DNA from: a virus
Taxonomy: Duplodnaviria; Caudoviricetes
Virus record (IMG/VR): IMGVR_UViG_3300027528_000003
Span: 1 to 52,450 of that record
Strand: one strand, 5' to 3'
DNA length: 52,450 nucleotides
Made by a program: the position numbers and the translations under genes. The notes under the pieces are model-generated. The model was given only the letters and a program-made list of their open reading frames with translations, had not been told where the DNA came from and did not search any database. How positions within the stretch are numbered: position 1 is the first letter of the stretch; every line of letters begins with the position of its first letter. This document shows, piece by piece, positions 5,195-42,543 of the stretch.

Positions 5195-6718
5195 TCAGTA
5201 GGTGCGGCGCACGGGGGCGCCGCCACGCGGCTGTACAGAAGCGCGGGAGATGTCGGTGGCGGTGGTGACGGCTTTGCCCGCCCCCGGTACCCGCAGCAGC
5301 GCATACCCCAGGTACACCGAGGCGTCGATACGGCCGGGGCTGTCGGGGTCGTCGGGCTGCCAGGTGGCCCATTCGTTCTCGAGATCGGGGAGGTAGAACC
5401 CGAAGCGGATGCGGTCTTCGATGACCTGCTGGGCGATGGGGTCTGCGCGCAGCAGCTTGCCTACCTTGGCGCGGACCGGCTTGACCCGGGGACACAGCGT
5501 TCCCTCGGGGATCAGTTCCTCGTGCTGCATGGCGGTCCAGGCCGTGCGCACGGCCAGGGTGGCCTGGTCGCCGCCGAAGTTGGTCTCCACCACGATCAGT
5601 TGAGCGTCGGTGTCGTAGGCCAGCTGACAGGCCGCCCTGGACCACTGCGCGCTGGACATGTGGGCGGTGCGGTCGTGGGTCCAGTACAGGCGCTGGTCCT
5701 CGCCCAGGTAGCCGCCGATGATTCCGGCTTCGTCCCGGCCGCCGCCGGACGGGTCCACCGCCACCGCCACCCGCATCGGCGCCGGGGGCTCCTGGAAGTG
5801 GCGTGCGCGTTCCAGCTGCTCCCTTGAGAGCAGGGCGCCTTCGGCGGGTTTGGGGTCGCCCTGGTAGAGGGCGCCCCAGTCGCGGGCCTTGGTCTCGGCT
5901 TTCTTCTTGGACCAGTGCGCGGTGAGCAGACGGATGTTGCTGTCCGGGATGGCCGGGTGGGTCAGGGGGTCGCCGGGGGCGCGGTGCAGCGGATCGTCCG
6001 GGGCGGAGCTTATGGCCGGGAGGTGCAACACAATCCACTTGCCGCCCCGGGCCTTGACGCCCTCGTAGTGCATCAGGCGTCCGGCCAGGTCGTCTTCGTG
6101 CCAGCGGGTCATCAGCAGCACTACGGGGGTGCCCGGCCGCAGCCGGGACATGAACGTGGAGGACCACCAGTCCCAGACGTGTTCGCGCATCAGCCGCGAG
6201 TCGGCTTCCTTGCGGTCTTTGTGGGGGTCGTCGCAGATCGCCAGAGTCGCGGGGAAGCCGGTCAGTGACCCGCCCACGCCCACGGCGCGCATGCCTCCGC
6301 CTGCGGTGGTGGACCAGTCGTAGACGGAGGCTTCGCCGCGCTGTATCCGCAGCCCGAACTGGGCGCCGTGTTCGAACACGTGACGGCGCACTACGCGGGA
6401 GTGCTTCAGGGCCAGGGATGCGGCGTAGGACCCCAGCACGACCTTGGCGCGGGGTTCGCGGGCGAGCCACCAGAACGGCAGCGACTGCGAGACCAGCGTG
6501 GATTTGCCTACCTGCGGCGGGGTGGTGATCAGGAGGCGGTCATCTGGGCCCAGCTGTCCCAGGGTCTGTCCGATCAGGCGGGTGTGGGCGCGGATCTGGA
6601 AGTGGCGCGGGTCCAGGTACTTGGCCATCGTGGCGGGGTTCTTCAGGGCGGCCAGGCGGCGCATCTCCGCGCGCAGCTCCACGTCGGACATGTCGTGGTA
6701 GACAGCGAGGTCACTCAT
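5195..6718 (-). CDS. terL: Terminase large subunit
   Basis: Walker A PPQVGKST, Walker B AICDDP, MTRWHEDDLAG, nuclease motif VAVDPSGG. Confidence 0.95.
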   Translation of the reverse strand: MSDLAVYHDMSDVELRAEMRRLAALKNPATMAKYLDPRHFQIRAHTRLIGQTLGQLGPDDRLLITTPPQVGKSTLVSQSLPFWWLAREPRAKVVLGSYAASLALKHSRVVRRHVFEHGAQFGLRIQRGEASVYDWSTTAGGGMRAVGVGGSLTGFPATLAICDDPHKDRKEADSRLMREHVWDWWSSTFMSRLRPGTPVVLLMTRWHEDDLAGRLMHYEGVKARGGKWIVLHLPAISSAPDDPLHRAPGDPLTHPAIPDSNIRLLTAHWSKKKAETKARDWGALYQGDPKPAEGALLSREQLERARHFQEPPAPMRVAVAVDPSGGGRDEAGIIGGYLGEDQRLYWTHDRTAHMSSAQWSRAACQLAYDTDAQLIVVETNFGGDQATLAVRTAWTAMQHEELIPEGTLCPRVKPVRAKVGKLLRADPIAQQVIEDRIRFGFYLPDLENEWATWQPDDPDSPGRIDASVYLGYALLRVPGAGKAVTTATDISRASVQPRGGAPVRRTY

Positions 6719-7322
6719 CTTCTTCGCCCATCAGCTCCAGTACGTCCTCGGCGTCGATGCCGCCGGAGCCCAGGCGCCGCGCCAGCTCCATCGCAGCGGA
6801 TTCCATCTGCGCGCGCCGGGTGCCTTCATCGGCCGGCACTGAGGTGACCGTGATGGGGCCGCGTCCGGGGCCGGACAGCTGCACGCTGGTGTCGGGCTCG
6901 CCCAGGGCCACGCGGGCCAGCTTCGAGTACAGCTCGGCCATGCGCGTCAGCTCGGTCGCCGACAGGACGGAGGGGTCCAGTCCCTCCATCCCGGCGGAGA
7001 CTTTCCCGAGTACCTGCTTGGACAGGCGCAGGTGCTCCCTGACCATGGCGCGGGAGTTCTCGTCCAGGGCCGCGAGCCACTGGCGGTCCATGTGGGCGTC
7101 ATAGGCGCCGCAGCGTTCGTTCCAGCGCCAGGTGTAGGCGTACTGCTGGGCGGTGCGGTGGGTGATCTTCAGTCTTTCCGCCGCCCGCTTCAGCGTGCGC
7201 GTTCGCCCCAGGTCGCGGTACAGGGCGAACTGGTTCCAGCGGTTCAGGGATTCGCCGGGCTGGCGGTCCCAGGCGTCGCGGTCGTCGTCGCGCACGACGA
7301 TAGGCGCTTTGGGTTCAGCCAT
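6711..7322 (-). CDS. terS: Terminase small subunit
   Basis: WDRQPGES...FALYRDLG..RTL HTH and WRWNERCGAYD; overlaps terL. Confidence 0.75.
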   Translation of the reverse strand: MAEPKAPIVVRDDDRDAWDRQPGESLNRWNQFALYRDLGRTRTLKRAAERLKITHRTAQQYAYTWRWNERCGAYDAHMDRQWLAALDENSRAMVREHLRLSKQVLGKVSAGMEGLDPSVLSATELTRMAELYSKLARVALGEPDTSVQLSGPGRGPITVTSVPADEGTRRAQMESAAMELARRLGSGGIDAEDVLELMGEEDE

Positions 7323-8226: not shown

Positions 8227-8969
8227 CGGGTCACCGGCCGGGGTGCGGGGCGGAAGGCGAGTTCGCCGGGGCGGGTGGCGTGCGGGCGCAGGTACTGGGG
8301 CCAGCGCCGTACCAGTTCCTGGCACAGGGCCTGCTCGTCGGCGGGGGTGCGGTTGGCTACGGCGCCGCCCCGGTTGCTGTAGTGCGCGTAGGACGCGGTG
8401 ATCATGTCCAGGCGGGCTACTTTGCCGTGCAGGTGCAGGTGGGCACAGGTGTAGTCGTAGTCCTCTTTGAAGGGCAGCGTCTGGTCCCAGACGGGGATGG
8501 CGGTGTCGGTGGCGCACAGCGAGCCGATGATGAAGCCGTAATCCAGCTGTTTGCCCCGGGCGAAGTAGGCGTTGTCTGTCGGGGGGACGCCGACCAGGTG
8601 AGCGGTGCCGTCCAGGGCGTTGAGGATCTTCTCGCGGACGTGGGTCCAGGCGATGGGGAAGGGCTTCGCGCCGTCGGTTGCGGGGATGTGCCTGAAGCCT
8701 TTGCAGTCGTCGTCGGTCTGGATGCAGACCACGCCCTTGCTGGTGGCGTCGTAGAGGGCGGCGTTGCGTGCTGCGGCCAGGGCGTAGCCCGGTGGCGGGG
8801 GGTTCTTGACGGCCAGCACCCACTCGGCTCCGGCCTGCCGGTAGTCGTAGCGTTCATCGGCCGGCACGACCCACACGAGCGGGTCCGGGGCGAAGCGTGC
8901 GGTCATGGCGGGTACGTTGCCGGGGCGTCCGGCGCTGATCACGTACACCTGGTGGGCGCGGGTCACCAT
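8223..8969 (-). CDS. TET-associated GT-A fold glycosyltransferase
   Basis: YVISAGRP, ARN, QTDDD (DxD), KEDYDY, GG near the C-terminus; coupled to the dioxygenase. Confidence 0.8.
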   Translation of the reverse strand: MVTRAHQVYVISAGRPGNVPAMTARFAPDPLVWVVPADERYDYRQAGAEWVLAVKNPPPPGYALAAARNAALYDATSKGVVCIQTDDDCKGFRHIPATDGAKPFPIAWTHVREKILNALDGTAHLVGVPPTDNAYFARGKQLDYGFIIGSLCATDTAIPVWDQTLPFKEDYDYTCAHLHLHGKVARLDMITASYAHYSNRGGAVANRTPADEQALCQELVRRWPQYLRPHATRPGELAFRPAPRPVTR

Positions 8970-9733
8970 GTGATGGCCTCCACTCCGGCTTCGCGGAGCA
9001 TGTCCTGCCACTGGACCGGGGGGGCGTTGGTCTTGGCGCCGTCCAGGACGGCGACGGCGATGCGTACGGCTGCGTGGACCAGGGGTCCGGTGGGCTGTTC
9101 GCCGAGGTGTTCGCGCATTGCCTCCAGTCCGTTCATCAGGGCGGCTTTGTCGTCCACCGGCAGGATGACGACGACTTCGGCCAGGCCCTGGACGGCGAGG
9201 GAGCGTTCGCCTGCTACGCGGGCTTCGCGGGCTTCGCGGGCGTCGGGTTCCTCGGCCCACTGCGCGTCGGTGGGGCCGGGGTCGGTTTCGCGGCCCATGG
9301 CGTCCTCGTCGGGTTCCAGGCGCACCAGGAGGTCATCGAGCCAGTCGTCCTGGTAGCCGGTGCCGTCCAGGCCGATGTCGGTGTCGGCGAGTTCTTTGAG
9401 GACTTCGGCGAGGAGGTATTCGTTGAAGCCGCCGCCGACCTGGGCGGCCTGGTTGTCGACTACGAGGATGCGTTTGGCCTGGACGTCGGTGAGGTTGAGG
9501 CGTACGGCGGCGATCTGGTCCCAGCCGAGTTGCTGGGCGGCGTGCCAGGTGTGGTTGCCTGCGCAGATGTAGCCGGTGGAGTCCTGGATGACGATGGGCT
9601 TGAACTGGGAGTTGACTTCCAGGGATTTCGCGATGACGTCGATGTCGCCCTGGCGGGGGTTTCCGGGCCAGGGCTGCATGGTGCTGATCGGGGTCAGCTG
9701 ATCCTGTAGGGCGGTGTTGACGTTGTGGGGCAC
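8963..9733 (-). CDS. ParB/Srx N-terminal domain protein
   Basis: PWPGNPR, PIVI, AGNHTWHAAQQLG, ILVVDN. Confidence 0.85.
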   Translation of the reverse strand: MPHNVNTALQDQLTPISTMQPWPGNPRQGDIDVIAKSLEVNSQFKPIVIQDSTGYICAGNHTWHAAQQLGWDQIAAVRLNLTDVQAKRILVVDNQAAQVGGGFNEYLLAEVLKELADTDIGLDGTGYQDDWLDDLLVRLEPDEDAMGRETDPGPTDAQWAEEPDAREAREARVAGERSLAVQGLAEVVVILPVDDKAALMNGLEAMREHLGEQPTGPLVHAAVRIAVAVLDGAKTNAPPVQWQDMLREAGVEAITW

Positions 9734-9818
9734 GGGGGTCTCCGGGCGGCAGCGGTATGGGGCGGCTTGTCCGCACGGTACCGCCGTGTCCGGGTTGTTG
9801 GGGGTATGCGGGGAGAGG

Positions 9819-10082
9819 TCATGGTGTGTCGAAGGGACGCATGAGGCAGAGTTCCGCCAGGACCGCGCAGTACCGCTTGAGGGCGTAGGGGTCGGCTGGG
9901 AGGTGTCCGGCTTCCCACAGGGCCAGGGTGCATTCGCTGATGCCTACGCGCTGGGCTACGTCGGCGCGGGTCAGCGGGATGAGTTCGCGCAGGAGGGTGA
10001 GGTGGCCGCAGGCAGCCAGCTGGCCCAGGGCGCGGCTGATCTCGGCGGGGCCGGGCGGCTGCTGGTCAATCAGTGTGCTCAT
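9819..10082 (-). CDS. XRE-family HTH protein
   Basis: LTRADVAQRVGISECTLALWEAG. Confidence 0.75.
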   Translation of the reverse strand: MSTLIDQQPPGPAEISRALGQLAACGHLTLLRELIPLTRADVAQRVGISECTLALWEAGHLPADPYALKRYCAVLAELCLMRPFDTP

Positions 10083-10142
10083 GGCTGACAGAACGTACCG
10101 GGCCACTACGCACCCCCCGGGGTGGACGCGCCTTTGGTGGGG

Positions 10143-10349
10143 TCAGTCTGTGTGGTGGCCTGGCTGTTGCGGAAGGACCACGCCGAATGTCCGGCCCGAG
10201 GGGTGGCGCTCGCTGCCGGGCGGCCGGGGCGGCCGGGGCGGCAGCGGCGGGGCAGCGGGAGGGCGGTGTCGGCCTATCAGGATCGCGCCCAGGGCGGCGC
10301 TGGAGGAGCCGAAGGCGAGCGCGGACAGCAGCGCGGAGAGAGTGGACAT
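10143..10349 (-). CDS. Small membrane protein
   Basis: N-terminal hydrophobic helix, Pro-rich tail. Confidence 0.45.
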   Translation of the reverse strand: MSTLSALLSALAFGSSSAALGAILIGRHRPPAAPPLPPRPPRPPGSERHPSGRTFGVVLPQQPGHHTD

Positions 10350-10394
10350 ACTGCCACCCTGTGCCACAAGCGGGCCGCCCGCCCGGCGACACGC

Positions 10395-10826
10395 CTATCC
10401 GGGCGACCACGGCGCCCGCCGCTCCGGGGGCCACCCGGCAGTGCCGGGGTCGGGCCACCGGCGCAGCAGCTGGCGGCGCTGGCGGTCGTTCAGGCGGACC
10501 GCACGCTCGTACACTCCCACTACCCGCGCCCCGGCCACCCCCCAGGTAGGGAAGGGGTCCTCGCCGGTCCACAGGCCGTCGTCCAGGGGCTGGACCAGGT
10601 ACAGGTCCCCCAGCCAGCAGCGGGAGGCGTAGAACCGGGCGTAGGGGCGGCTGGTGGTCACATACAGCAGGTCGGGGCGGCCGGTGGCGGGCTCCAGGCC
10701 GGTGCTGTCGCCCCGGGCGCGTTTCTCACACGTGGGGCAGCCGTCCATCAGGGCCGGGGCGTGCCCGCCGGTGAGCACCTCGCCGACGCGGACTCCGGGG
10801 GTGCCGCCGTGCCAGATCCGTTCCAT
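10395..10826 (-). CDS. Arr-like ADP-ribosyltransferase fold protein
   Basis: WHGG...VGEVL, LYVTT...ARFYA, LYLVQP...EDP in the order seen in Arr-type ARTs. Confidence 0.6.
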   Translation of the reverse strand: MERIWHGGTPGVRVGEVLTGGHAPALMDGCPTCEKRARGDSTGLEPATGRPDLLYVTTSRPYARFYASRCWLGDLYLVQPLDDGLWTGEDPFPTWGVAGARVVGVYERAVRLNDRQRRQLLRRWPDPGTAGWPPERRAPWSPG

Positions 10827-10860
10827 CCGGTCACGGTAGCGGCCGGGCCTGACACCTGGG

Positions 10861-11193
10861 TCAGGCGGCTTCCAGGACGAACAGCGGCGGCTGCACGGGC
10901 CCGTAGGGGAACGCGAACACCCCGGCGGCGGTGTCCAGGGTGCGGATGCAGCGCTGGCAGGTAATCGGGGCGTAGGTGGCGTTCATGGCCATGATGTCCC
11001 AGCCGTAGGTGCCGGTGTGGCAGGCGGGCTGGGGGATGAGTTCCCCGCCGATCCAGCGGGCCGGGGTGACGGCGTGGACGATCTTGGACTTGCGGACGGT
11101 CATGCGCTTGCCGCCAGCGAACTTCTGCCGGGCGGACAGGGCCAGGGACCGCACGGCGGTCAGCGGCGTGTCCTGCTCGGGAATCATGTTCAT
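10861..11193 (-). CDS. Hypothetical Cys/His protein
   Basis: VHAV...PAC...ITCQRC. Confidence 0.65.
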   Translation of the reverse strand: MNMIPEQDTPLTAVRSLALSARQKFAGGKRMTVRKSKIVHAVTPARWIGGELIPQPACHTGTYGWDIMAMNATYAPITCQRCIRTLDTAAGVFAFPYGPVQPPLFVLEAA

Positions 11194-11220
11194 GCGGCTA
11201 TTATGCCCGGTCCGCTCAGG

Positions 11221-11238
11221 TGATAACTAGGTGTTTCA
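11221..11238. promoter_or_regulatory. 18-bp operator-like site
   Basis: TGATAA-CTAGGT-GTTTCA. Confidence 0.55.
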
Positions 11239-11239
11239 T

Positions 11240-11701
11240 TCATCTCATACCTGCGGCTCTGGCCAGCAGCAATGCCGAGAACGGGGCTGCGGTGGGCTTG
11301 TCCTGGGCGAGCTGGCGCCACAGCCGCTCCAGGTCCGGCTCGCTCTGCCGGTGGCAGGCGCTGATCCACTGCTCCAGGAACTGCCGGGCGCGGTTCCACT
11401 GCGGCAGCGTGATCACGGCGGGCTCCCCGCGTGACAGCGCGATACCCGAGCCCAGTCTGCGCAGCTGGTAGTCCACCACACTGCCCGGCCGCTTCGGGGG
11501 CGGCGGCGCCGGGTCTGAACTGATCCGCAGGCCCAGCTCCACCGCCACCAGGTACTCCAGCTGGGGCCGGGCAGCCAGCAGCGTGCCCCGGCGTACTGCG
11601 TCGCCCAGGCGTCCCATGGTCACCGAGCCGACCAGCAGGTCGGCCCAGGCCCAGACCTGCTGCCGTGTGGCGTTGTCCATGGGGTCAGTGTCCTGGTTCA
11701 C
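11240..11701 (-). CDS. Hypothetical protein, last gene of the paralogue operon
   Basis: Overlaps the end of the upstream gene; start at 11701 (GTG) or 11680 (ATG). Confidence 0.6.
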   Translation of the reverse strand: MNQDTDPMDNATRQQVWAWADLLVGSVTMGRLGDAVRRGTLLAARPQLEYLVAVELGLRISSDPAPPPPKRPGSVVDYQLRRLGSGIALSRGEPAVITLPQWNRARQFLEQWISACHRQSEPDLERLWRQLAQDKPTAAPFSALLLARAAGMR

Positions 11702-12287
11702 GCCGGTACATCGAGGCGATCCACGCGGGCAGCGCCAGGCACACCGGGGATTCGATGTCGCGGACCTGCGGAATCCGGGACAGCTCCGCGCGGGCCAGGT
11801 TGAACTCGGGCTCTCCGGCGGCCGGGCGGCACCCCAGCGCCCGCTGCACGTACGGGGCGGCCGTCTCGGTCTGCGCGAGCAGCACATCCCCCAGCTGCGC
11901 ATACTCCTGGAAGGCCTCGTCGGGGCTTTCCGCCGCCACCAGCCGGGCGCCGGTGTGGACGGACTTCACCACCCCGTCGAACACGAGCTGGCGGCGCCGC
12001 TCCACGGAGATGGCCCGCTCCAGCTCCACCACCCCGAAGCGGTTGCGCCAGTGGTCGGGGCCGTGGCTGTCGACGAGCTGGAGGATGCACGCGGCCAGGT
12101 CCACCGGGCCGCGCCAACCGTACTGGGCTGCCAGCGGCATGGTGATCCGGCCCATGGCCTGGGCGCGGATACCGGCCTGGTACAGCTCCTGGAGCATCTG
12201 CCAGTACGCCGGGGTGCCGTAGGGCTGGAGCCGGATGCGGTCGGTCCGCGGGGGTTCTGTGGAGTGCCGGCGCGAGGTGCGGCTCAT
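11685..12287 (-). CDS. Unknown-family paralogue D
   Basis: LQPYGTPAYWQML...AQYGWRGPVDL. Confidence 0.75.
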   Translation of the reverse strand: MSRTSRRHSTEPPRTDRIRLQPYGTPAYWQMLQELYQAGIRAQAMGRITMPLAAQYGWRGPVDLAACILQLVDSHGPDHWRNRFGVVELERAISVERRRQLVFDGVVKSVHTGARLVAAESPDEAFQEYAQLGDVLLAQTETAAPYVQRALGCRPAAGEPEFNLARAELSRIPQVRDIESPVCLALPAWIASMYRREPGH

Positions 12288-12973
12288 GTGCGGCGCCGGG
12301 TTGTGCTGTCGTGGCTGTACTGGGCTCCGCCGCCGACTCCGTAGCGGCACACCGCCCACGCCAGAACCACTCCGGTCAGGGCTTCCTCGCGGCCGGAGTT
12401 GATGCTGTTGTCGTTGGTTACGGGGATGCCCTGGCCGTCGATTCCCGGTCCCCGGCGCAGCTGGAGCGCGGCGCGGCGTAGGGCGGCGGTGTCGCCGCCG
12501 TCGGAGGCGGGGCGGGTGTACAGGGCGGCCTGCATCAGCTTGCGCCAGGCCGACATGATGTCCTGCGACCACGACGCCAGGCGCTGGGCGTCCTGGAAGC
12601 GTTCGGTTCGGGCTACGGGGTCCTGCGGGGCGGTGTTGTCCGACAGGATCACTCCTGCCTGGAAGCTGGTGGCGGCCTGCATCTCCTTGGGCAGGCACAG
12701 TTCCACCAGGGGTACCCCGTAGGCGTTGCAGCAGCGCGGGTCGGCTTCGGCGTCCAGCAGTGACAGGGCCATCGCCATCAGGTCCGGTGCGGCGCGCAGC
12801 CCGTACTGGTCGATGAAGATTTTCGCGTGCTCCATCGACTCCGGGTTCACTCCTGCGGGGTTGGTGCAGGCTTCGGCGGTGATCTTCGTGATCAGGCCCC
12901 AGTAGTCCGGGGAGTTGTAGCGGGGCCACTGGTCCAGGGTCCATACGGTGGGTGCGGGGCGGGGCAGGCGCAT
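12284..12973 (-). CDS. Unknown-family paralogue C
   Basis: WPRYNSPDYWGLI...DQYGLRAAPDL. Confidence 0.75.
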   Translation of the reverse strand: MRLPRPAPTVWTLDQWPRYNSPDYWGLITKITAEACTNPAGVNPESMEHAKIFIDQYGLRAAPDLMAMALSLLDAEADPRCCNAYGVPLVELCLPKEMQAATSFQAGVILSDNTAPQDPVARTERFQDAQRLASWSQDIMSAWRKLMQAALYTRPASDGGDTAALRRAALQLRRGPGIDGQGIPVTNDNSINSGREEALTGVVLAWAVCRYGVGGGAQYSHDSTTRRRT

Positions 12974-12984
12974 CAGGGGTTCTC

Positions 12985-13584
12985 TCAGCTGAGTTGGAGG
13001 CAGATGGTGGTGATGGCGTAGATCAGCACGGGGTCTTTTTCGCGTAGTCCCGGGCCCTGGAGCAGGATGGCGCGGGCGGTGAGGGCGTCGCGGTGGTGCA
13101 GGGCGGCCAGGGCCTGGTTGCACAGCTGCATCCACTGCGGCACCACCCCGATGCCCTCCACGCCCAGGTGTGCGGACTTCTCCCACAGTTCGCGGCGCTG
13201 TTCGGGGTCGGCCTGCCTGGGCAGGGTGTGGTCGTAGTGGCCCATCATGAACTGGAACACCTCGGCTTCGGCGCTCTCCTGGACCGGCGCGAACATTCCG
13301 GCCAGGTCGCAGGCTCCGGTGAAGGGGTTGCGGGCGTCGGCGGCCCAGTCGCGTTCCATCCGGGTCAGCCCGAGCATGATCAGGTCGATCAGGGCGCGCA
13401 GGCCGTAGCGGATCGCGATCAGGTTCTGTGCCTGCACGCCGTGCGGGCTCAGGGCGTAGACGGTGTGGAAGTGCTCCAGGAGCTGGATGTACTGCGCGGA
13501 GCCGTACGGGGGCAGTCCCTCGCCGGAGACCAGGCCCAGGGTGTCGGGGAACGGCGGGAGGGTGTCGGGGCGGCGACGGGGCAT
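12985..13584 (-). CDS. Unknown-family paralogue B
   Basis: LPPYGSAQYIQLL...IRYGLRALIDL. Confidence 0.75.
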   Translation of the reverse strand: MPRRRPDTLPPFPDTLGLVSGEGLPPYGSAQYIQLLEHFHTVYALSPHGVQAQNLIAIRYGLRALIDLIMLGLTRMERDWAADARNPFTGACDLAGMFAPVQESAEAEVFQFMMGHYDHTLPRQADPEQRRELWEKSAHLGVEGIGVVPQWMQLCNQALAALHHRDALTARAILLQGPGLREKDPVLIYAITTICLQLS

Positions 13585-14573
13585 CAGCGCCGGTGTCCTT
13601 TGCGTTCGGGGCAGCCCGGTGCGTGCCCGTGGTGGTGGTGGCCTTTGGCGTCCACCTCGTAGGGCTGGAAGGAGACCTGGGTGCCGCAGTCGCGGCAGAC
13701 CGCCCGCAGGACCTGCTGGCCGTAGATGTCAGGGGTGCGGTCCAGTTGCAGGTCCAGGCTGTTGTCCCGGCCGCACTTGGGGCACTGCATGTACTGGGAG
13801 CGGCGGGCGTCGTCTGAGTGCAGCGCCCGGGAGACCTTCCCGGACAGGGCCCGGTCGGTCTGCGCGAGCATGTCGAAGTTCTCGCCCAGGAGCCGCTTGG
13901 GGTCCGAGACCGCCAGCCACACCATCGACGCCCACAGCATCACCAGCCGGGCCTCCTTGTCGTTGGTGCGCAGCGTGGGGTACTTCATCAGGGCGCCCCG
14001 GGTCAGGGTGGTGCTGTCGCGGTTCAGGTGCGCGTCCAGGCACTCCTGGAGCGGCCCGGTCCACCGGGGCAGGTTCCGCGAGAGGCGTTCGGCTTCTTCC
14101 AGGCGCCGGGTGAACGCTTCGGCGTCGGTGGCGGGGTCGCCGGTGGAGATTTTGTCGGGCAGCAGCGACCCGGCCAGCACATCGGCTTCCGAGGGCTCGC
14201 GCAGCAGATGGGAGACCTGGAACCGGCCCGCCATGGAGGCCACTGCGCTGGGCAGGCCGTTGGTGCGCATGTGGTGGGCGGTGCGGGCCATGCACGTATC
14301 GGCGAAGTCCAGCAGGAACCGCCAGCCGTAGTGGTCGGCGGCGGCGTCCCAGTCGGGCAGGTCGGGGTCCTCGTCGCGGTCGGTGAGCTTGCGGAGCATG
14401 GTGCGGTACTCGGGGGTGCCGCGTTCGGGGAAGCCCCAGCCCATGAACATCCCGATCAGGGTCTGGGCGTCGATCTCGATGGGGGTGGTGAACACGATCT
14501 GCGTGGTGTCGATGAAGCCGCCTTCCACCGGGGTGCTGGTGGTGGTCGCGGTGAACTCCGGTTCTTCGGTCAT
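13584..14573 (-). CDS. Unknown-family paralogue A with C-terminal Zn ribbon
   Basis: FPERGTPEYRTML...DHYGWRFLLDF; CPKC...CRDC; His-rich tail. Confidence 0.75.
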   Translation of the reverse strand: MTEEPEFTATTTSTPVEGGFIDTTQIVFTTPIEIDAQTLIGMFMGWGFPERGTPEYRTMLRKLTDRDEDPDLPDWDAAADHYGWRFLLDFADTCMARTAHHMRTNGLPSAVASMAGRFQVSHLLREPSEADVLAGSLLPDKISTGDPATDAEAFTRRLEEAERLSRNLPRWTGPLQECLDAHLNRDSTTLTRGALMKYPTLRTNDKEARLVMLWASMVWLAVSDPKRLLGENFDMLAQTDRALSGKVSRALHSDDARRSQYMQCPKCGRDNSLDLQLDRTPDIYGQQVLRAVCRDCGTQVSFQPYEVDAKGHHHHGHAPGCPERKGHRR

Positions 14574-14785
14574 GGTTTGTGCTCCTGCTCGATGATTCCC
14601 TCGGCGCGCAGATGGGTGCGCAGGGCGTCTATGACGATCGCGCGCCGGTCCAGGCCGGTCTTGTCGTGGAGTTCGTCCAGGGCTGCCTTGAGGGTGTAGG
14701 GGATGGCGCAGGTGAGTTTCTCCTGCGGTACCCGCCCGGCCCCCCCGGCGGCGGCCGGGGGGGCGGGCAGCATGCGGTCGTTCAC
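14570..14785 (-). CDS. Ribbon-helix-helix (CopG/ParG-like) protein
   Basis: KLTCAIPYTLKAALDELHDKTGLDRRAIVIDALRTHL. Confidence 0.7.
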   Translation of the reverse strand: MNDRMLPAPPAAAGGAGRVPQEKLTCAIPYTLKAALDELHDKTGLDRRAIVIDALRTHLRAEGIIEQEHKP

Positions 14786-16134
14786 TTGGGTCCCTTGTTG
14801 CCGTACAGCTTGACCAGCTCGCCGAACAGGTCGGAGGCGTGGGGGGTGGGGCCGATGGGCGAGGTGAGCTGGAGTTCGGAAGGCTTGAAGCTGATCTTTC
14901 CCCAGGTGCGGCCCTGGCAGGTGTAGTCCCAGGCGCGGGTGAGCAGGTAGAAGTCCACTCTGGTCTGGTCCATGGGGCGCAGCTTGATGCGCTGGCGGCG
15001 GGTGCTCTCCGGGGCCAGGAGGTATTCGCGCAGGGTCCAGTTGGGGTCGCCCTTGCGGATGGTGGTGGGGTAGCGCATCTCGTCCACCCACCATCCGGCC
15101 AGTTCGCCGCCGTCGCCGCAGTGCTTCCCGGCCAGGTAGTGGAACAGCCCCAGCGCGTTCGCCTTCAGGTTCAGCTTGGGGGCCTGGTACATGATCGACA
15201 CTGATTCGCGCAGTCCGGGGTTGCTGGAGATCGCGGCCTGGATCTGTTCGTCGGACATGGCGCGGTTGGCGCGGTCCCACAGCTCGGTCTCGCGGACGTT
15301 GAACCACAGGTGGGCCAGGCGGCCGAGCGCGGCCAGCTTCCCGGCGTTCTTCTCACCGGCGCCGTGCAGGGTGTCGGCGGTGGTGCGGCGCTTGCCCCGG
15401 TCCATCTTGGAGTACAGCTCGGGGGCGACGCCGTAGGCCACGTAGAACGGCTGCGGCAGCCCGGACTCCAGTACCGCGTTCAGGCGGTGCTGGCCGTTGC
15501 TGAGCTGGGAGTTGGTGTCGATGCATAGCGGGTCCGAGGCCAGCAGCACCCACTCGTTGCGCACCATCTTGCCCTGGTAGTTCAGCACCAGGTCCCTGGA
15601 GGTGTTGCGCTGGTAGTCGGGCACGGTGCACAGCAGTTCCAGGGCGCGTTCGGGGGTGATGATCTCCGCGCGGATCGCCGGCTCCTCGTGGAGTACCTGC
15701 GGGGCGCTGTCGGGGATGGCGGTGGCCTTCTTGGCGCGGGCGGCGTTGCCGGGGGTCAGGTGTCTGCGCTGGATCTCGCTGGGGCCCTCGGGAAGTAGCT
15801 GTTCGGGGCGCACCGGCTCGGGGGTCTTGCGCACCTGGGCTGGGCGGGCGGGTTCCAACTCCGGCACGATGCCCAGGCGTTGATCGCGGTCCAGTTTCTG
15901 CTGCTCGTCGTACAGGTCCTCGGTCCAGCCGATGCGCTTGAGGCGGGTGAGGATGTTCTTCAGCTGCTGGTCCGAGGCGCGCGGTGAGACTTTCACCGAG
16001 GCGATGGCCTGACCGGCGGGATCGACGCGTTCGACCTTGAACGCGCCGTCGGGGCAGGGCTTGACGACGAAGCCTGCGGTCTGGCCGCAGAGCCGCACGA
16101 CGCGTAGGGCGTCGTGGTTGGTTCCTGAGCTCAC
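14782..16134 (-). CDS. ParB-like (DGQHR-type) domain protein
   Basis: ITPERALELL...YQRN...SNGQHRLNAV...MDRGKRRT. Confidence 0.7.
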   Translation of the reverse strand: MSSGTNHDALRVVRLCGQTAGFVVKPCPDGAFKVERVDPAGQAIASVKVSPRASDQQLKNILTRLKRIGWTEDLYDEQQKLDRDQRLGIVPELEPARPAQVRKTPEPVRPEQLLPEGPSEIQRRHLTPGNAARAKKATAIPDSAPQVLHEEPAIRAEIITPERALELLCTVPDYQRNTSRDLVLNYQGKMVRNEWVLLASDPLCIDTNSQLSNGQHRLNAVLESGLPQPFYVAYGVAPELYSKMDRGKRRTTADTLHGAGEKNAGKLAALGRLAHLWFNVRETELWDRANRAMSDEQIQAAISSNPGLRESVSIMYQAPKLNLKANALGLFHYLAGKHCGDGGELAGWWVDEMRYPTTIRKGDPNWTLREYLLAPESTRRQRIKLRPMDQTRVDFYLLTRAWDYTCQGRTWGKISFKPSELQLTSPIGPTPHASDLFGELVKLYGNKGPK

Positions 16135-16187
16135 GTGCGTGGTCCTTCGTTCCGGGGACGCCCCGGCCGGGCATCCCGGCCGGGGGG

Positions 16188-16205
16188 TGAAACCTTGGCC
16201 TATCG
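16188..16205. promoter_or_regulatory. 18-bp operator-like site upstream of the ParB-like operon
   Basis: TGAAAC-CTTGGC-CTATCG. Confidence 0.5.
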
Positions 16206-16287
16206 CGTGGTGCAAGGGGTGCTTATCCCAAGCATAGCGGCCCGGCCGGGCGGCCGGGCGGCCGGGCCACTATCCGCAACCAGGCGG

Positions 16288-17343
16288 CTACAGCACGCCC
16301 TGGGCGGCGAGCTTGGCGATGTTGACCGCACGGGTCTTCTTGGCCTCCTTGTCGAACACGCACCGGTTCAGGTAGGTGCCCGAGTCCTTGAAGGCGCGGG
16401 AGTGGTCCAGGTACTCGACCCCGGCCTGCATCAGGCCGTAGGCCGAGCCCCGGATGCCCTCGCAGGTCGGTCCGGCCAGCAGCATCGACACCTCCTGCCG
16501 GGCCACGGTCACGTTCTCCAGCGCCCGTGGCTTGAGCTTCCACTCCTCGCGGGTGGGGAACACGAACTCGTCCACGAACCGCTGCTCCTGAGTGGGCGTC
16601 ACCGGGCGGGCGCACATCTCCTCGGCGAACACCCGGTACTTCTCCAGGTCGGTGTCGGCGGTCTCCATGGCCTGGTCGATCTCCTCCACCAGGCGGTCCA
16701 GGTTGGCCTTCCAGTTGGCCCGGTGGTGGAAGGACCAGGTAGCCAGGTTGCGGTCCTTGGCGTCCATCTCGGCCGCGTGGAAGGTGTTCTGGCACCACAC
16801 GCGGACGTTGGTCGGGATGACCTTGAGGGAGCCGTGGCCGTCGTGGCGGTTGAGGAACGCCATGTAGCGGGAGGTCGGGGACGGGTCGTTGCCGATCTGG
16901 ATCTGGTCGCCGTACTGGAGCAGCGCCCACACCTGCTTGCCGTCGTTGCCGGACCCGGCGGTCTCGAAGCGCAGGTTGTCCCGCCCGAGCAGGGTGTCCA
17001 TCACCAGGCCCATGTCGGTGTTGGTGATCATCTCGAAGGTGTCCGCCGCCGGGGCCAGGAGCTGGCGGTTGTCCGAGCGAACGATCAGGTCGTAGCCGTC
17101 CATGGCCACGTACTCCTCGGTGAAGCCGTCCGCGCCCAGGGTGGTGACCTTGTCGTACATCGGCACGCGGATCGGGTCCCAGTCCAGTCCGCCCAGTTCC
17201 CGGGCGTGCTGCCAGCTGGTGGGGCGGTCGGCGGCGGTGACGGTCTGCGTCCCGGCCCAGGGGGCGCTGCGGACCTGGCCGTGGCTCCAGCTGGTGGCGT
17301 CGGGCAGGGCCGAGCTGTTGCGGGGGTTCACGTTGGGGTGCAT
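16288..17343 (-). CDS. DUF932 family phage/plasmid protein
   Basis: GGLDW, FETAGS..DGKQVW, NRHDGHGSL, TNVRVWCQNT, GSAYGLMQAGVEYLDH. Confidence 0.85.
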   Translation of the reverse strand: MHPNVNPRNSSALPDATSWSHGQVRSAPWAGTQTVTAADRPTSWQHARELGGLDWDPIRVPMYDKVTTLGADGFTEEYVAMDGYDLIVRSDNRQLLAPAADTFEMITNTDMGLVMDTLLGRDNLRFETAGSGNDGKQVWALLQYGDQIQIGNDPSPTSRYMAFLNRHDGHGSLKVIPTNVRVWCQNTFHAAEMDAKDRNLATWSFHHRANWKANLDRLVEEIDQAMETADTDLEKYRVFAEEMCARPVTPTQEQRFVDEFVFPTREEWKLKPRALENVTVARQEVSMLLAGPTCEGIRGSAYGLMQAGVEYLDHSRAFKDSGTYLNRCVFDKEAKKTRAVNIAKLAAQGVL

Positions 17344-17525
17344 GGGGTTCTCCTTGGCTGGGGTCGCGTGTCCGGGCCGCTGCTGGCCCGGCGTCTCCGC
17401 TGTGCACAACGTTAACCGATCTGCGCGGATGGTGCAAACGTTGTGTTTCATACTGGAGCGCGGCGCGGGAGATTAGTCCTGAACTGCGGGGATACGTCCG
17501 GCGATCTGCGCGGTTCCATAGAGGA

Positions 17526-17900
17526 ATGCTGAACCAGCCCACTGACATCCCGCCGCTGCCCGCCGAGGACCCCACCGACGGCACCATCCACTGGAACCCC
17601 TGGACGGCCCGCAGACACACCCTGGAACCGTGTCCGGACTGTGGCGCCACCGCACCCCCCAACGCCGCCCAGGGAGCCACACAGCAGTGCTCCCGGCCGC
17701 CTTCCACCGCCGCGCAGTGGTGCATCACGCACACCGCCCTGCACTGCACCCACTGCGGCGCCGTACGCACCTACCGCGTGTGGAACCCGCGCCTGGGCAA
17801 CATCCGCCAGCTGATCCGCGCCCGCCCCCCGCTGATCTGCGTCGAACCAGGGGCTCTTCCGCCGGCGCCCGGGCAGCCCCCGCAACCGACCCTGTTCTAG
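17526..17900 (+). CDS. Hypothetical Zn-finger-like protein
   Basis: CPDC and CTHC motifs; GAGG RBS. Confidence 0.55.
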   Translation: MLNQPTDIPPLPAEDPTDGTIHWNPWTARRHTLEPCPDCGATAPPNAAQGATQQCSRPPSTAAQWCITHTALHCTHCGAVRTYRVWNPRLGNIRQLIRARPPLICVEPGALPPAPGQPPQPTLF

Positions 17901-18038
17901 CCGCCCCCGGGCCTACCCTGGCGGTACGGCAGTCCGCGCGGAACGGCCACCAGGGCACCCACCGGCAGGTGGCCCCGGTCCGCGGACGCCAGCGGCCCCC
18001 GGCGTCCCGTGGCGGGGGCCGCGCCGCGCCCCGGCCCG

Positions 18039-18741: not shown

Positions 18742-19577
18742 GCCGTTCGCTCCTTCATCGCCTCACGTACCCGGGCCGCGCCCCGTATGGCTACCTCGGG
18801 CTTTGGTGCGCGGGTCTCCATGGGAACGCTAGCCAGCTCCGGCAGATACGGGTGCGACGGCGCACCGGCCGGGATTCCCCCGGGCAGCACCCGCACCCCC
18901 AGCACGACGTCTTCGTACGGGGTCGCGCGCGGACCGGTACCTGTCTCTACTACATCAGCCATGGGTTGGTAGTGAGAGGTAAAAGAGGTAGGGGCGTCAC
19001 GTGACGGGGTGTGCGCTGTCACGTGACGGGGTGTGGTGGTGTCACGTGACGGGGTGTGGCTCTGCGGCGGGGTCTCGCAGGGGCTGTCACGTGACGGGGT
19101 GTGGCTGGCACTGTCACGTGACGGGGTGTGGGCTTGGGCGGCAGCCCGCTTGACGGCGTGGTCGGCGGCGGTGCGGGCGGCGCGGGCGGCCGGGGTGAGC
19201 CGCCGGTCCGTGCGCAGGACGGCGAGACCGGTCTCCCAGTCGGGCCAGGGATTGACCAGCAGGGTGTACACCGCCGGGCCGGGGTGCTCGCCGCCGCGTG
19301 CCTTCTTGGTCAGCTCCAGCAGGCCCATGGCGACGCCCATGCGCAGCACGCGGGAGACGGTGTCCTGGGAGCAGCGGGAGCGGTCGGCGAGCCATTCGAC
19401 GGACGGGTGCGCATTTTCGCCCGTCTCATAATCCGCACACTGTGCAAGCCACATCAAAACGGACGGAACGGATGAACTCACCGCTTTCCACTCGGGCGAT
19501 TCACGAGTGGCTTTTGGGCAATCTTTGATCGCTTTGCCCAGGTTGTTGATCCACGCAGATTGGACATTGTCCGCCAT
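18738..19577 (-). CDS. Replication initiator (N-terminal wHTH)
   Basis: AHPSVEWLADRSRCSQDTVSRVL; HTPSRD peptide repeats encoded by the iterons. Confidence 0.75.
   Translation of the reverse strand: MADNVQSAWINNLGKAIKDCPKATRESPEWKAVSSSVPSVLMWLAQCADYETGENAHPSVEWLADRSRCSQDTVSRVLRMGVAMGLLELTKKARGGEHPGPAVYTLLVNPWPDWETGLAVLRTDRRLTPAARAARTAADHAVKRAAAQAHTPSRDSASHTPSRDSPCETPPQSHTPSRDTTTPRHVTAHTPSRDAPTSFTSHYQPMADVVETGTGPRATPYEDVVLGVRVLPGGIPAGAPSHPYLPELASVPMETRAPKPEVAIRGAARVREAMKERTA
18996..19130. repeat. Five 18-bp iterons (putative origin)
   Basis: GTCACGTGACGGGGTGTG at 18996, 19018, 19041, 19086 and 19113; purine-rich tract at 18970-18995. Confidence 0.85.
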
Positions 19578-19656
19578 CGAGTATTCCCCTCCGTGATGCA
19601 CAGATCACACCGCGTCCGGTTGCGTGGCAGGCGCCCGGTCGGGGTAAACTGGCATC

Positions 19657-19710
19657 ATTCGTTGGAAGGCACTGGTGATTATGGGCTGGAACCCACACCA
19701 GTGCCTTTTG
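19657..19710 (+). ncRNA. Putative antisense (copy-control) RNA in the rep leader
   Basis: TAAACT at 19645; stem AAGGCACTGGTG / CACCAGTGCCTT ending in a T4 run. Confidence 0.4.
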
Positions 19711-19863
19711 GCTTTCCTAAGCCGCCGTCAGCTTAGTGGCCTGAATCGTTGCCGCACCAAATGCGTATGGCTGGCGTGTCTTCGCTGGGTCGTGCTATAC
19801 ATCGTTTTGTTATGGTCTCGATCCGCGGATCGGCCCCTATGTCTGCAGCGGGGTGTGACCCAG

Positions 19864-19896
19864 GAGCCCCACCGGTCCACTGTGCCGGTGGGGCTC
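19864..19896 (-). terminator. Hairpin terminator
   Basis: GAGCCCCACCGG / CCGGTGGGGCTC just after the stop at 19905. Confidence 0.6.
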
Positions 19897-19904
19897 TCTG
19901 CGTC

Positions 19905-28226: not shown

Positions 28227-28700
28227 CTAACCCATCAGTGCGGCCAGGGCCTGAAGCGGGGGTACCCGCTGCGTATGCGCGGCAGACATGACCATGTCCG
28301 CACAGACGAACATCAGCGCCGTGCACGCATCACGCCGGTCGTCCTCCGGGTGCGTGAACAGGGCCTGGGCGATGGCCCGCGCGGTGGCGGGCTGCCGGTT
28401 GAACTGCGTAGTGACCATCTGCCCCGCGTACCGCATCGCGGTGTCGGTCTCCTTGAGCCCGAACGTCAGCTCCGGCTTCGGGTTCGGATGCGGCCCGTAC
28501 ATGATCCGCAGCGCCTCGGCGGCGATCCGCGCTATCTCCACATGCCCGTCCACGTAGTGGTAGGCGGTGATCGCGGAACGGATCTCCTCGGCCGTCAGGT
28601 GATCGTGGTGGACATCATCGCCTTCGCCGCCGCAGTGCGCCAGGGCGAGGGTGTCGGCCAGCAGCGTACGCATCTGCGGGGACAGGACCGGACTCGTCAT
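28227..28700 (-). CDS. Hypothetical helical protein
   Basis: TACGGT six nt before ATG (leaderless-type start). Confidence 0.65.
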   Translation of the reverse strand: MTSPVLSPQMRTLLADTLALAHCGGEGDDVHHDHLTAEEIRSAITAYHYVDGHVEIARIAAEALRIMYGPHPNPKPELTFGLKETDTAMRYAGQMVTTQFNRQPATARAIAQALFTHPEDDRRDACTALMFVCADMVMSAAHTQRVPPLQALAALMG

Positions 28701-28734
28701 GGGACAACCGTAGCGCCCCAACCCACCCGCGCCT

Positions 28735-41776: not shown

Positions 41777-41798
41777 AGGTGGCTCCTCTGTGAATGGG

Positions 41799-42535: not shown

Positions 42536-42543
42536 CGTGGCTC

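Follow-up and report, generated by a model that had tools for sequence, protein, structure and literature searches.

Gene content and setting of the operon

The window, that is, the whole stretch of DNA analysed here, is a complete virus genome of 52,450 bp and 70% G+C. It contains a terminase match and a weak portal match to Pfam and, with a TerL 61–63% identical to theirs, is that of a siphophage-type soil actinophage related to Streptomyces prophages; the one recombinase seen in it is a small resolvase-type serine recombinase. Flanked by a DUF932 gene and the packaging module is a translationally coupled run of minus-strand genes encoding a ParB/Srx-fold protein, an RHH protein, four paralogues (here A, B, C and D) and a 146-aa ORF product. 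Specifically, the ParB-like and RHH genes overlap by GTGA, RHH and A by ATGA, A and B by 1 nt, and C and D again by ATGA, with gaps of 11 nt between B and C and of 4 nt between D and the next ORF. That last gene (11240..11680, minus strand; GC3 0.88) has no match in Pfam, PHROG, NCBIfam or PADLOC and no BLAST match in the related Streptomyces prophages L003 and L004, and was rejected as a member of the paralogue family (hhalign against the family, prob 0.4%).

The gene upstream of the run (16288..17451, minus strand) encodes a 387-aa DUF932/TIGR03299 ‘phage/plasmid-like protein’ (Pfam DUF932, 7e-33; NCBIfam TIGR03299, 4e-52, 177 bits against a cutoff of 110.7), and heads the equivalent block in the Streptomyces prophages, where its product is 47–50% identical to L003 and L004 ORFs. 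Two G+C-rich hairpin-forming repeats occupy the interval between it and the ParB-fold gene (16159..16273): inverted repeat I12 at 16234–16273, with 20-nt arms that are 85% complementary, and a second hairpin at 16159–16187 (repeat D9). These hairpins may be a terminator or attenuator; as an operator common to the 3′ end of the operon they were rejected, there being no counterpart site at that end. Nor did we recover the 18-bp operator-like site that an earlier note on this DNA had placed at each end of the operon, as the best match between 16100–16300 and 11180–11260 is only 13/18.

The ParB-fold and RHH proteins

The gene for the 450-aa ParB/Srx-fold protein (14782..16134, minus strand) most likely starts at 16134, the start called in the collection itself (P0040) and favoured by the orthologue alignment. 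The protein is laid out as an N-terminal alpha+beta domain (residues 1–90), a disordered linker (94–149), a ParB-like domain and a helical C-terminal part, and matches phrog_5931 (1e-27), with no match in Pfam. Its predicted structure (AF2 pLDDT 82.9) finds pNOB8 ParB-N as its best Foldseek match in the PDB (5k5d_B; E 6.6e-4, prob 1.00), with further matches to ParB-CDP 6sdk, 7bm8, Noc 7ol9, KorB 8qa9, Spo0J 1vz0 and sulfiredoxin. Canonical ParB carries an arginine-rich CTP motif, at the position of which the 450-aa protein has NGQHRL, invariant across 27 homologues. It is like the orphan ParB-CTPase/Srx-fold proteins, in the part of their description consulted (PMC12704722), in being phage-encoded, of the same fold and without a ParA partner in the window, and differs from them in having no match to Pfam ParB_N or NCBIfam DGQHR/DndB. 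Similarly, it differs from ∼300-aa Streptomyces homologues, which lack an N-terminal domain such as its own. Such shorter ParB-like homologues occur in 45 further genomes among 401 searched, and in none of the 45 is the canonical paralogue family found. Members of phrog_5931 in other actinophages lie among early genes, adjoining repressor genes in DeadP and a helicase in Fribs8.

The small RHH-like gene (14570..14785, minus strand) probably starts at GTG 14785, giving 71 aa, rather than at ATG 14773, giving 67 aa. An RHH identity is plausible from its aligned strand-helix-helix pattern, with a Pfam RHH_1 match below threshold (E 0.073, 13.5 bits against a cutoff of 20.5). The protein is 35–40% identical over 52–53 aa to L003 and L004 ORFs; its homologue in the prophages is the C-terminal part of their ParA-adjacent 139/167-aa proteins. 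The earlier description of a ParB-like and an RHH gene ahead of the paralogues is thus borne out by Foldseek for the first of them, and is plausible for the second.

Four divergent paralogues of an undescribed family

The four tightly packed minus-strand genes reported earlier lie where they had been placed, and every motif string quoted for them is found in the translations: A at 13584..14573 (329 aa), B at 12985..13584 (199 aa), C at 12284..12973 (229 aa) and D at 11685..12287 (200 aa). Their GC3 of 0.88–0.93 and GC2 of 0.44–0.53 match what is expected of coding DNA in a genome of 70% G+C. They are true divergent paralogues, as had been proposed, with pairwise E-values down to 1e-8: BLASTP relates B to C (8e-8, 26% identity, 167 aa), C to D (1.7e-7, 28%, 159 aa), B to D (1.5e-4) and A to B (5e-4, 23%, 176 aa), and A–C and A–D alone are not significant (0.12 and 0.19). 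This is confirmed by a profile built from 29 outside relatives only: of the 551 window ORFs searched with it, D (6e-25), A (3e-23), B (5e-20) and C (9e-13) are all recovered, and the best non-member reaches E 0.063. A 31-nt DNA repeat (D1) coincides with the YGWR motif in all four genes. The distant fifth member suggested at 28227–28700 on the plus strand fell away (phmmer E 0.16–0.83; missed by both profiles), and this ORF is probably no gene, given its GC3 of 0.69 against 0.87 on the opposite strand.

Paralogue A belongs to a long-N acidic class, with 48 aa ahead of PERGTPEY, a net charge of −8 and a His-rich tail. Towards its C-terminus it also carries the CxxC..CxxC noted before (CPKC at residue 264, CRDC at 293), in a stretch (residues 259–305) that resembles the Lar (TIGR03655) and Zn_ribbon_Elf1 ribbons. 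However, these matches are sub-threshold (Lar 14.4 bits against 39.6; Elf1 17.4 against 29.8), as is every Pfam zinc-ribbon match of A, and the ribbon is an appendage on a single window copy. Paralogues B, C and D have short N-termini and form one clade (support 96/91); they are a lineage-specific triplication, with A in another class. The tree has long branches, of 2.0–2.8 changes per site where the median is 0.99.

Across the family we find the motifs P-x-R-G-T/S-x-x-Y, Y-G-W-R-x-x-x-D, R-D-x-x-G, W-x-P-x3-A-L-x-A-A and R-x-A-L-x3-P-G-x-R, and among 31 sequences Y32 and D67 never vary and R85 hardly does. In the window copies the conserved polar residues are mostly replaced (Y stands for R in B, C and D, and RD is changed to RN or, in A, lost). 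The paralogue chosen for modelling, B, is predicted to be all-alpha with nine helices (AF2 pLDDT 83.1, pTM 0.79), and a Foldseek search with the model returned no match, and hence no structural neighbour hinting at DNA binding. The family is as unfamiliar as it had seemed from the letters: there is no match in Pfam, NCBIfam, PHROGs, PADLOC, PDB sequences, sequenced phages or plasmids, and its outside relatives amount to only 27 clusters among 1.84 billion representatives. Thus A–D are old duplicates in an undescribed all-alpha protein family.

Distribution of the family and its neighbours in Streptomyces prophages

The canonical form of the family turned up in a single lineage of Streptomyces-type siphophages and prophages and nowhere else, and the family is absent from plasmids, from cultured phages and from all but a few host genomes. 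Its copies are mostly acidic (median pI 5.2) and fall into two classes, one acidic with a 32–94-aa N-terminal extension and the other near-neutral with a short N-terminus; the tail of the latter is often basic or Cys-containing (candidate zinc-binding), and all four subfamily-S1 copies end in CxxCG or CxCG plus a basic tail. The two classes co-occur in 5/5 elements with at least two known copies. Homologues that are usually single and unlinked to ParB and RHH genes had been named as evidence against the original reading; this is not the usual pattern of the canonical family, whereas weak relatives lacking the N-terminal motif do, as single copies in unrelated contexts of Streptomyces chromosomes.

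L003 and L004 each carry two family copies in a conserved slot downstream of a DUF932 gene, a 450-aa ParB-fold gene, ParA and a longer RHH gene, and copies of theirs absent from the profile were still matched by it (E 6e-22 and 1.4e-30). Their ParA proteins (237–239 aa; KGGIGKS Walker A; Pfam AAA_31, CbiA, MipZ) lie directly ahead of the 139/167-aa proteins, which have a long low-complexity N-terminal tail with LPRRRS, and a 204–206-aa gene and ∼200-nt spacers separate RHH from the family copies. In S. andamanensis, a single contig holds the equivalent block upstream of TerL (63% identical) and portal (37%). Overall, seven elements have the family linked, by observation or by inference, to the 450-aa ParB-fold gene: the window, L003 and L004; Streptomyces sp. 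NPDC059278, where the family and ParB-fold accessions are 6 apart on one 103,011-bp contig; and three record pairs whose linkage, with adjacency unseen, is inferred from equally long longest contigs (114,657, 40,853 and 6,573 bp). As a side observation, a weak TET-associated glycosyltransferase-like gene (E 2e-5, under the cutoff) lies 7 kb downstream in L003.

Type Ib partition cassettes consist of a ParA ATPase and an RHH centromere-binding protein, as in ParF/ParG of TP228 and delta/omega of pSM19035. The ParA of L003 and L004, followed by an RHH-containing protein, resembles such a cassette, whereas the window has no ParA and an RHH protein of just 67–71 aa, and no centromere was identified. 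The lack of ParA, as first reported, stands, since a profile search was negative and a Pfam CbiA control was positive in 14/14 genomes. From these comparisons it appears that the window lost ParA, that its RHH protein was reduced to its fold, and that the family grew from two copies to four. A family kept and expanded in a window without ParA is unlikely to depend on ParA, and we know of no partition system that contains proteins like A–D.

Possible roles of the paralogues

Our best guess, which we hold tentatively, is that the family forms a non-enzymatic heteromeric accessory complex in a phage DNA-establishment or maintenance operon. The copies would be sub-functionalised subunits of an alpha-helical complex, rather than enzymes, of two classes: an acidic one with an N-terminal extension (A in the window) and a near-neutral one with a short N-terminus (B, C and D), the zinc ribbon having shifted to the long-N copy in A. 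Made together with the ParB-fold protein and RHH, the complex would act with them on incoming or resident phage DNA, independently of ParA, in genome establishment or maintenance, and RHH would be the DNA-binding regulator of the operon or a centromere-type binder. The copies probably work together, because the related Streptomyces prophages keep two unlike copies beside a plasmid-type partition cassette, and the loss of polar motif residues from the window copies argues for a scaffold or binder over a catalytic site. Of the earlier suggestions, the hetero-oligomer gains indirect support from the co-occurrence of unlike classes, while a non-canonical partition system is weakened by the ordinary ParA and long-tailed RHH next to the family in two sequenced relatives. 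However, the three sequenced contexts all come from related phages, and inheritance, rather than functional coupling, may account for the shared gene order. The lack of a structural neighbour pointing to DNA binding, the shorter ParB-like homologues without the family and the single weak relatives elsewhere also count against the complex.

Nearly as likely, though we regard it as doubtful too, is that these are early phage proteins, diversified by duplication, each neutralising a putative target in the host, for instance a defence system or a protein of the nucleoid or of segregation; with the ParB-fold and RHH genes they would share no more than a transcript. Long branches and a lineage-specific triplication are typical of arms-race genes, which counts against the complex, and acidity in most copies is no less expected of a protein binder or a DNA mimic than of a complex bound to DNA. 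The missing enzymatic signature, the absence of the family from cultured phages, plasmids and nearly all hosts, and the early position of phrog_5931 in DeadP and Fribs8 point the same way, as does the anti-defence or phage–host interaction role proposed, in the part of the source consulted, for prophage orphan ParB-fold proteins (PMC12704722). The first-entering DNA of plasmids is described, in the consulted part of another report, as an anti-defence hotspot (PMC11541004), and the window shares with those islands an early operon whose small, rapidly evolving genes belong to no known family and accompany a DUF932 and a ParB-fold gene; it differs in being a phage rather than a plasmid and in having no homology to any described anti-defence protein. 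Against such binders, the Foldseek search gave no similarity to any known anti-defence protein or fold, and two unlike classes kept paired across subfamilies 30–48% identical are more ordered than a free-running array would be.

Compared with the heteromeric complex, other roles seem remote. It is improbable that A–D initiate replication or handle the origin in a plasmid-like prophage, next to a partition cassette as many plasmid rep genes are, even though ParA and RHH adjoin the family in relatives, the sole recombinase seen is of the resolvase type, and five exact GTCACGTGAC repeats, along with AT-rich patches, lie 1.5 kb upstream of the block in a ∼1.1-kb region that has no confidently called gene. 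Pfam recognised no polymerase, primase, helicase or initiator over 30 of the 48 listed ORFs, ten genes from 38089 to 52401 lying outside the scan, but the actual replication genes may be among the unannotated plus-strand genes; moreover, no iterons lie in or beside the array, the proteins show no similarity to Rep, DnaD-like or loader folds, and initiators as tandem paralogues would be unusual.

Less probable still is an RHH-controlled stability or exclusion module, whether toxin–antitoxin-like or for superinfection exclusion, comparable to RHH-regulated genes beside a ParA gene. In pSM19035 (delta/omega-epsilon-zeta) the partition RHH lies ahead of a toxin–antitoxin pair, a layout which is resembled here by the ATGA overlap of the RHH stop and the A start and by RHH beside ParA in relatives; but A–D are mutually homologous, unlike toxin–antitoxin pairs, match no toxin family and nothing in PADLOC, and in the prophages are set apart from RHH by the intervening gene and spacers. 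We give similarly little credence to an enzyme family, for example one for DNA or nucleotide modification with the conserved R, T/S, Y, W, R and D as its active site. Fold and family matches are absent, a four-copy all-alpha bundle would be atypical, and the window copies swap most of these residues, against which stand the polar positions conserved across the 31 sequences and the weak glycosyltransferase-like gene of L003.

Four divergent tandem paralogues

The four minus-strand genes under study, A (13584–14573), B (12985–13584), C (12284–12973) and D (11685–12287), lie where the earlier note placed them, every motif that it quoted is present in the translations, and the G+C content by codon position is what true coding sequence would show (GC3 0.88–0.93). 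Their tight packing is likewise borne out: from the ParB-like gene (14782–16134, minus strand), through the RHH gene (14570–14785, minus strand), to a 146-aa ORF after D, neighbouring genes either overlap or are separated by no more than 11 nt. That the four are paralogues also holds: pairwise similarity is weak yet real (B–C, E 8e-8; C–D, 1.7e-7; B–D, 1.5e-4; A–B, 5e-4), with A–C and A–D not significant by themselves, and a profile of 29 outside relatives, themselves first found with an A–D profile, recovers all four among 551 window ORFs (D 6e-25, A 3e-23, B 5e-20, C 9e-13; next ORF 0.063). The four-way alignment contains 14 invariant columns, the YGWR motif coincides in all four genes with a 31-nt direct repeat, and the CxxC pairs described for A are found at residues 264 and 293.

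Two further suggestions did not survive. The 18-bp operator-like site said to stand at both ends of the operon has a best common match of only 13/18, and the ORF at 28227–28700 (plus strand), put forward as a possible fifth member, is found neither by pairwise search nor by profiles and is unlikely to be coding (GC3 0.69 versus 0.87 on the opposite strand). The likelier gene, to which that ORF is antisense, occupies 28227–28721 on the minus strand and encodes a 164-aa protein that matches no Pfam family (GC3 0.87). Window ORF 11240–11680 and ORF 10898–11527 of a Streptomyces prophage locus (L003, below) were also rejected as extra members (hhalign probabilities 0.4% and 0.2%). AT content in the operon region peaks in a 100-bp stretch (11181–11281, down to 47% G+C) that takes in the 46-nt gap behind the 146-aa ORF as well as the surroundings of the start of ORF 10861–11193, and that may represent an internal promoter or the operon end; the promoter and terminator scan returned no promoter-like site and one terminator-like site, against 3.1 expected.

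A family and predicted fold outside the libraries searched

When the four-sequence profile was run exhaustively with HMMER against 1.84 billion cluster representatives, it recovered 31 proteins at E ≤ 0.001, four of which are the window's own and 27 of which are outside members (E 1e-12 to 7e-4). Their alignment defines a signature of P-x-R-G-T/S-x-x-Y, Y-G-W-R-x-x-x-D and R-D-x-x-G, followed by the later blocks W-x-P-x3-A-L-x-A-A and R-x-A-L-x3-P-G-x-R. Neither Pfam nor PHROGs matched the core domain in any of these 31 members; in Pfam, B, C and D matched nothing and A only zinc-ribbon families, all sub-threshold. No NCBIfam model matched A–D above its cutoff (the Lar restriction-alleviation family, TIGR03655, reached 14.4 bits versus a cutoff of 39.6), and PADLOC matched none of six family proteins. 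Searches with tblastn of B and the protein P0017 against 50,697 phage records, and of P0017 against 72,556 plasmid records, found nothing, nor did blastn of the region against phages and plasmids, and B retrieved only itself in a word-based search of 5.8 billion proteins. Scans of viral contigs with A, the ParB-like protein, two further proteins (P0005 and P0012) and an alignment (A3), and of metagenome contigs with A3 and P0005, yielded no relatives. Literature searches on DUF932 with ParB in Streptomyces phages and on leading-region anti-defence met no account of the family, which is weak evidence given that the family is unnamed.

Structure-based comparisons gave the same outcome. The AlphaFold2 model of B on the 31-sequence alignment is a confident bundle of nine helices (pLDDT 83.1, pTM 0.79), for which Foldseek found no match at E ≤ 0.001 in either PDB (best E 0.63) or BFVD (best E 0.93). 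The family profile met only designed helical repeats among all PDB sequences (best E 0.015), and ESM Atlas gave no usable match for the proteins P0020 or P0016. A predicted complex of A with B scored 0.00 in two runs, which, with controls not folded, carries no weight either way. The four central genes of the operon thus belong to a family new to every library tested, with a fold that, as confidently predicted, is recognised by none of them. Uncharacterised phage families are common, and what is new here is a protein family and fold, not a demonstrated new system.

Two unlike classes of copy

BLAST clustering and a maximum-likelihood tree divide the outside members into four subfamilies, S1–S4, that differ in net charge and in the length of the region ahead of the first motif. 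Members of S1 and S4 have 1–19 residues there, with net charges between −9 and +1; a long N-terminus (32–94 residues) and net charges between −7 and −20 mark eight of the ten S2 members and all nine S3 members whose motif was located. By these measures A (48 residues, charge −8) is of the long, acidic kind, and B, C and D (16–24 residues, charge −5 to +2) are of the short kind. The latter three form a clade (support 96/91) with A apart, in a tree that places all four on long branches and carries a long-branch-join warning. All four S1 copies end in a basic tail containing CxxCG or CxCG, whereas A is the copy with the zinc ribbon in the window.

The two kinds occur together wherever more than one copy is visible. 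Both Streptomyces prophage loci described below pair S1 with S2, the longest contig of the S1 protein P0029 and of the S2 protein P0019 is 114,657 bp for both, and a 98,884-bp contig is common to the S4 protein P0005 and the S3 protein P0014. Counting the window, both kinds are present in five of five elements with at least two known copies, two of which rest only on identical contig sizes.

Relatives in Streptomyces prophages

Metagenome sources (Logan, JGI/IMG, ENA) account exclusively for 24 of the 27 outside clusters, and the remaining three are NCBI records from Streptomyces sp. NPDC051907, S. andamanensis and Streptomyces sp. NPDC059278. The prophage loci of the first two (L004 and L003, respectively) each carry two tandem copies, of which the upstream ones, absent from the profile, match it at 1.4e-30 and 6e-22. 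The linkage of tandem copies to ParB-like and RHH genes noticed in the window recurs in both loci, where gene order matches that of the window. The block begins with a DUF932 protein 47–50% identical to that of the window (DUF932/TIGR03299 in Pfam and NCBIfam; 16288–17451, minus strand), then a ParB-like protein (34–37% over about 445 aa), a ParA ATPase with a KGGIGKS Walker A motif, a 139/167-aa protein whose C-terminus corresponds to the window RHH (35–40%), a 204/206-aa gene, and family copies 1 and 2. Homologues of window ORF 10861–11193 lie further downstream, followed in L003 only by homologues of the window's HTH gene, its ParB_N gene and its gene at 6711–7322. On the S. andamanensis contig, TerL and portal genes lie 12–18 kb downstream.

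The 204/206-aa gene between the RHH gene and copy 1 (L003 8413–9027, L004 8327–8947; 39% identical) encodes a protein that opens with MC-x-x-C and has one stretch resembling the family's second motif; it was rejected as a family member (hhalign probability 0.2% alone, 0.9% as a two-row profile). Between the ParB_N and small terminase genes of the S. andamanensis prophage, L003 17496–18509 has a weak match to a TET-associated glycosyltransferase (TAGT; E 2e-5, 25 bits versus a cutoff of 27.5), which may hint at DNA hypermodification.

The canonical family is rare in host genomes. Ten of 401 sampled Streptomyces genomes matched at E ≤ 0.001, among which only S. andamanensis (G001) has the canonical two-copy form; eight have weak single-copy relatives without the N-terminal motif, and the match in G221 was discarded because it reads as an ankyrin repeat protein. 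Among 401 genomes sampled at family level two matched at E ≤ 1e-6, namely G001 and one weak match. The weak relatives (L019–L027 and L065, on Streptomyces chromosomes) align to profile positions ~31–173 (E 2e-13 to 4e-8 in the local search), lack P-x-R-G-T, and sit in unrelated, mobile-looking contexts with an N6-methylase-like gene, a DEAD helicase or a tyrosine integrase as neighbours. In one genome, G185, two such matches are 13 kb apart.

The ParB-like and RHH proteins and candidate sites

The likeliest start of the ParB-like gene gives a protein of 450 aa (P0040). Pfam, including ParB_N (PF02195), had no match at E ≤ 1 to a 477-aa reading of the gene, precomputed Pfam domains are absent from all 28 homologues, and PHROGs files the protein as phrog_5931 with no function assigned. 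NGQHRL is found at the motif position and resembles the motif of DGQHR/DndB-type ParB-like proteins; no NCBIfam family matched at E ≤ 0.1, the DGQHR/DndB model included. In the AlphaFold2 model (pLDDT 82.9), a disordered linker separates an N-terminal alpha+beta domain from a large second domain. The first 11 PDB matches listed by Foldseek are to ParB-N, ParB, Noc, KorB and Atu1540 (best E 6.6e-4, probability 1.00), and the best second-domain matches also take in Spo0J and sulfiredoxin; TM scores are low (0.15–0.25 by query) because only one domain aligns. A ParB/Srx fold is thus supported by the predicted model, and membership of the canonical ParB family is not. The ParB-like domain alone is common in Streptomyces (46 of 401 genomes), only G001 matching from profile position 1 and the other 45 from position 108 or later, so that the family travels only with the long, N-domain-bearing version, a link seen or inferred in seven elements.

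The RHH protein scored below the gathering cutoff of RHH_1/CopG (PF01402; 13.5 bits versus 20.5, E 0.073); its plausible assignment draws on this score and on a pattern in a three-sequence alignment (KLT-x-x-I, then ALDxL, then ALRxHL) that may represent strand-helix-helix. The prophage RHH proteins have a long N-terminal tail and directly follow ParA; the window RHH consists of the 67–71-aa core only. Type Ib partition cassettes are laid out in this way, with ParA beside a long-tailed RHH. The window differs from that layout in lacking ParA: as first noted from the sequence, none is present in the complete genome, whereas both prophages have one. A second ParB-fold protein of the window, encoded at 8963–9733 (minus strand) beside the packaging genes, matches Pfam ParB_N (E 3.4e-6, 27.5 bits versus a cutoff of 26.3) and shares 47% identity with an ORF of L003. 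The phage thus encodes ParB-fold proteins of two different kinds but lacks ParA.

No more than a candidate for a type Ib centromere in the window is a set of five exact copies of the palindrome GTCACGTGAC at 18996–19122, each followed by GGGGTGTG, at spacings of 22, 23, 45 and 27 bp. These copies are the only five matches to GTCACGTGAC in the genome at ≤ 1 mismatch; five scattered matches were reached in 15 of 100 shuffles, and the clustering is the notable point. They lie within 18742–19904, ~1.1 kb free of any confident gene, between AT-rich patches at 18931–18991 and 19501–19581, and are a candidate operator, centromere or origin.

Possible roles of the operon

As a frame, the DUF932, orphan ParB-fold and RHH genes of the operon are known in kind; the four paralogues have no counterpart there. 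Orphan ParB-fold proteins are described as frequent on prophages and plasmids with roles mostly open (PMC12704722), and unorthodox partition proteins as continuing to emerge from Streptomyces plasmids (PMC12260392). Our tentative proposal is of a heteromeric complex that acts with the ParB-fold protein and RHH on phage DNA independently of ParA, which we regard as possible, if short of probable. As the two unlike classes are constantly paired, they would be sub-functionalised partners, most simply in a hetero-oligomer. The copies would serve as scaffold or binder and not as a catalytic site, because conserved polar residues are largely replaced in the window (R becomes Y in B, C and D; RD becomes RN, or is lost in A), and the same replacements count against an enzyme, which we judge highly improbable. 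A joint role on phage DNA, in establishment or maintenance, is suggested by the standing association of the copies with the N-domain-bearing ParB-fold protein and RHH and by the zinc and basic tails, although the shared gene order may be mere inheritance, since all sequenced contexts belong to one phage lineage. Such a role would not depend on ParA, which was lost while the family was kept and expanded. The hetero-oligomer suggested in the earlier note is thus plausible from the constant unlike pairing; its ParA-less partition system is weakened by relatives that carry ParA. A more specific version, in which zinc bound by C-terminal CxxC tails links A and its short-N partners into a heteromeric alpha-helical adaptor that cooperates with the ParB/Srx-fold protein and RHH and can run without ParA as a new maintenance or establishment machine of Streptomyces phage-plasmids, is unlikely.

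Against the heteromeric complex, acidity, long branches and local triplication would fit anti-defence or host-takeover binders almost as well, and we consider such binders a slightly less likely explanation. An argument for them from first-injected DNA was discarded, as the terminase is of the T4-like headful type and the terminal repeat of the record does not reveal the physical ends. An RHH-controlled stability or exclusion module is highly improbable; Pfam matched no toxin family to A–D or to any of the 31 members. A role in replication is very unlikely.

The family is bound to one Streptomyces phage lineage that carries plasmid-type partition genes, and every element with more than one visible copy has kept the unlike pair. 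If accessory to ParB-fold/RHH DNA handling, it would extend by one component the still-growing range of segregation and establishment systems in actinomycete mobile elements; the adaptor, if real, would be a new accessory layer of these processes with a new fold. Should the copies be anti-defence binders, they would enlarge the small number of such families known in Streptomyces. The cultured S. andamanensis, with its two-copy version, offers a direct test bed.

The phage and its recurrence in soil

The window is the whole virus record, 52,450 bp with direct terminal repeats, estimated to be 100% complete and of 69–73% G+C throughout. The large terminase (Pfam Terminase_6N, 3e-12), a portal protein with a weak match (E 5e-4, under the Pfam cutoff) and an HTH protein are encoded on the minus strand, and the paralogue operon lies upstream of the packaging genes in the same transcription direction. 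As its TerL is 61–63% identical to those of two Streptomyces genomes and 45–46% to those of Gordonia phages, the phage is an actinophage with Streptomyces prophages as its nearest sequenced kin.

A small resolvase-type serine recombinase (30793–31404, minus strand; Resolvase 9.5e-21 plus HTH) is the sole recombinase among the 30 window proteins scanned, none of which was recognised as an integrase; a PD-(D/E)XK nuclease (27050–28171, plus strand) is encoded nearby. The recombinase, the lack of a recognised integrase and the ParA of relatives hint at a plasmid-like prophage state. Contig pieces covering window 9000–18000 with 0–2 differences were found in soil metagenome runs of a 2016 and a 2025 study other than the likely source samples, the four soil runs examined giving only fragmented, near-identical contigs. 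With such pieces recurring in both studies, the phage and its array are stable and recurrent in soil.
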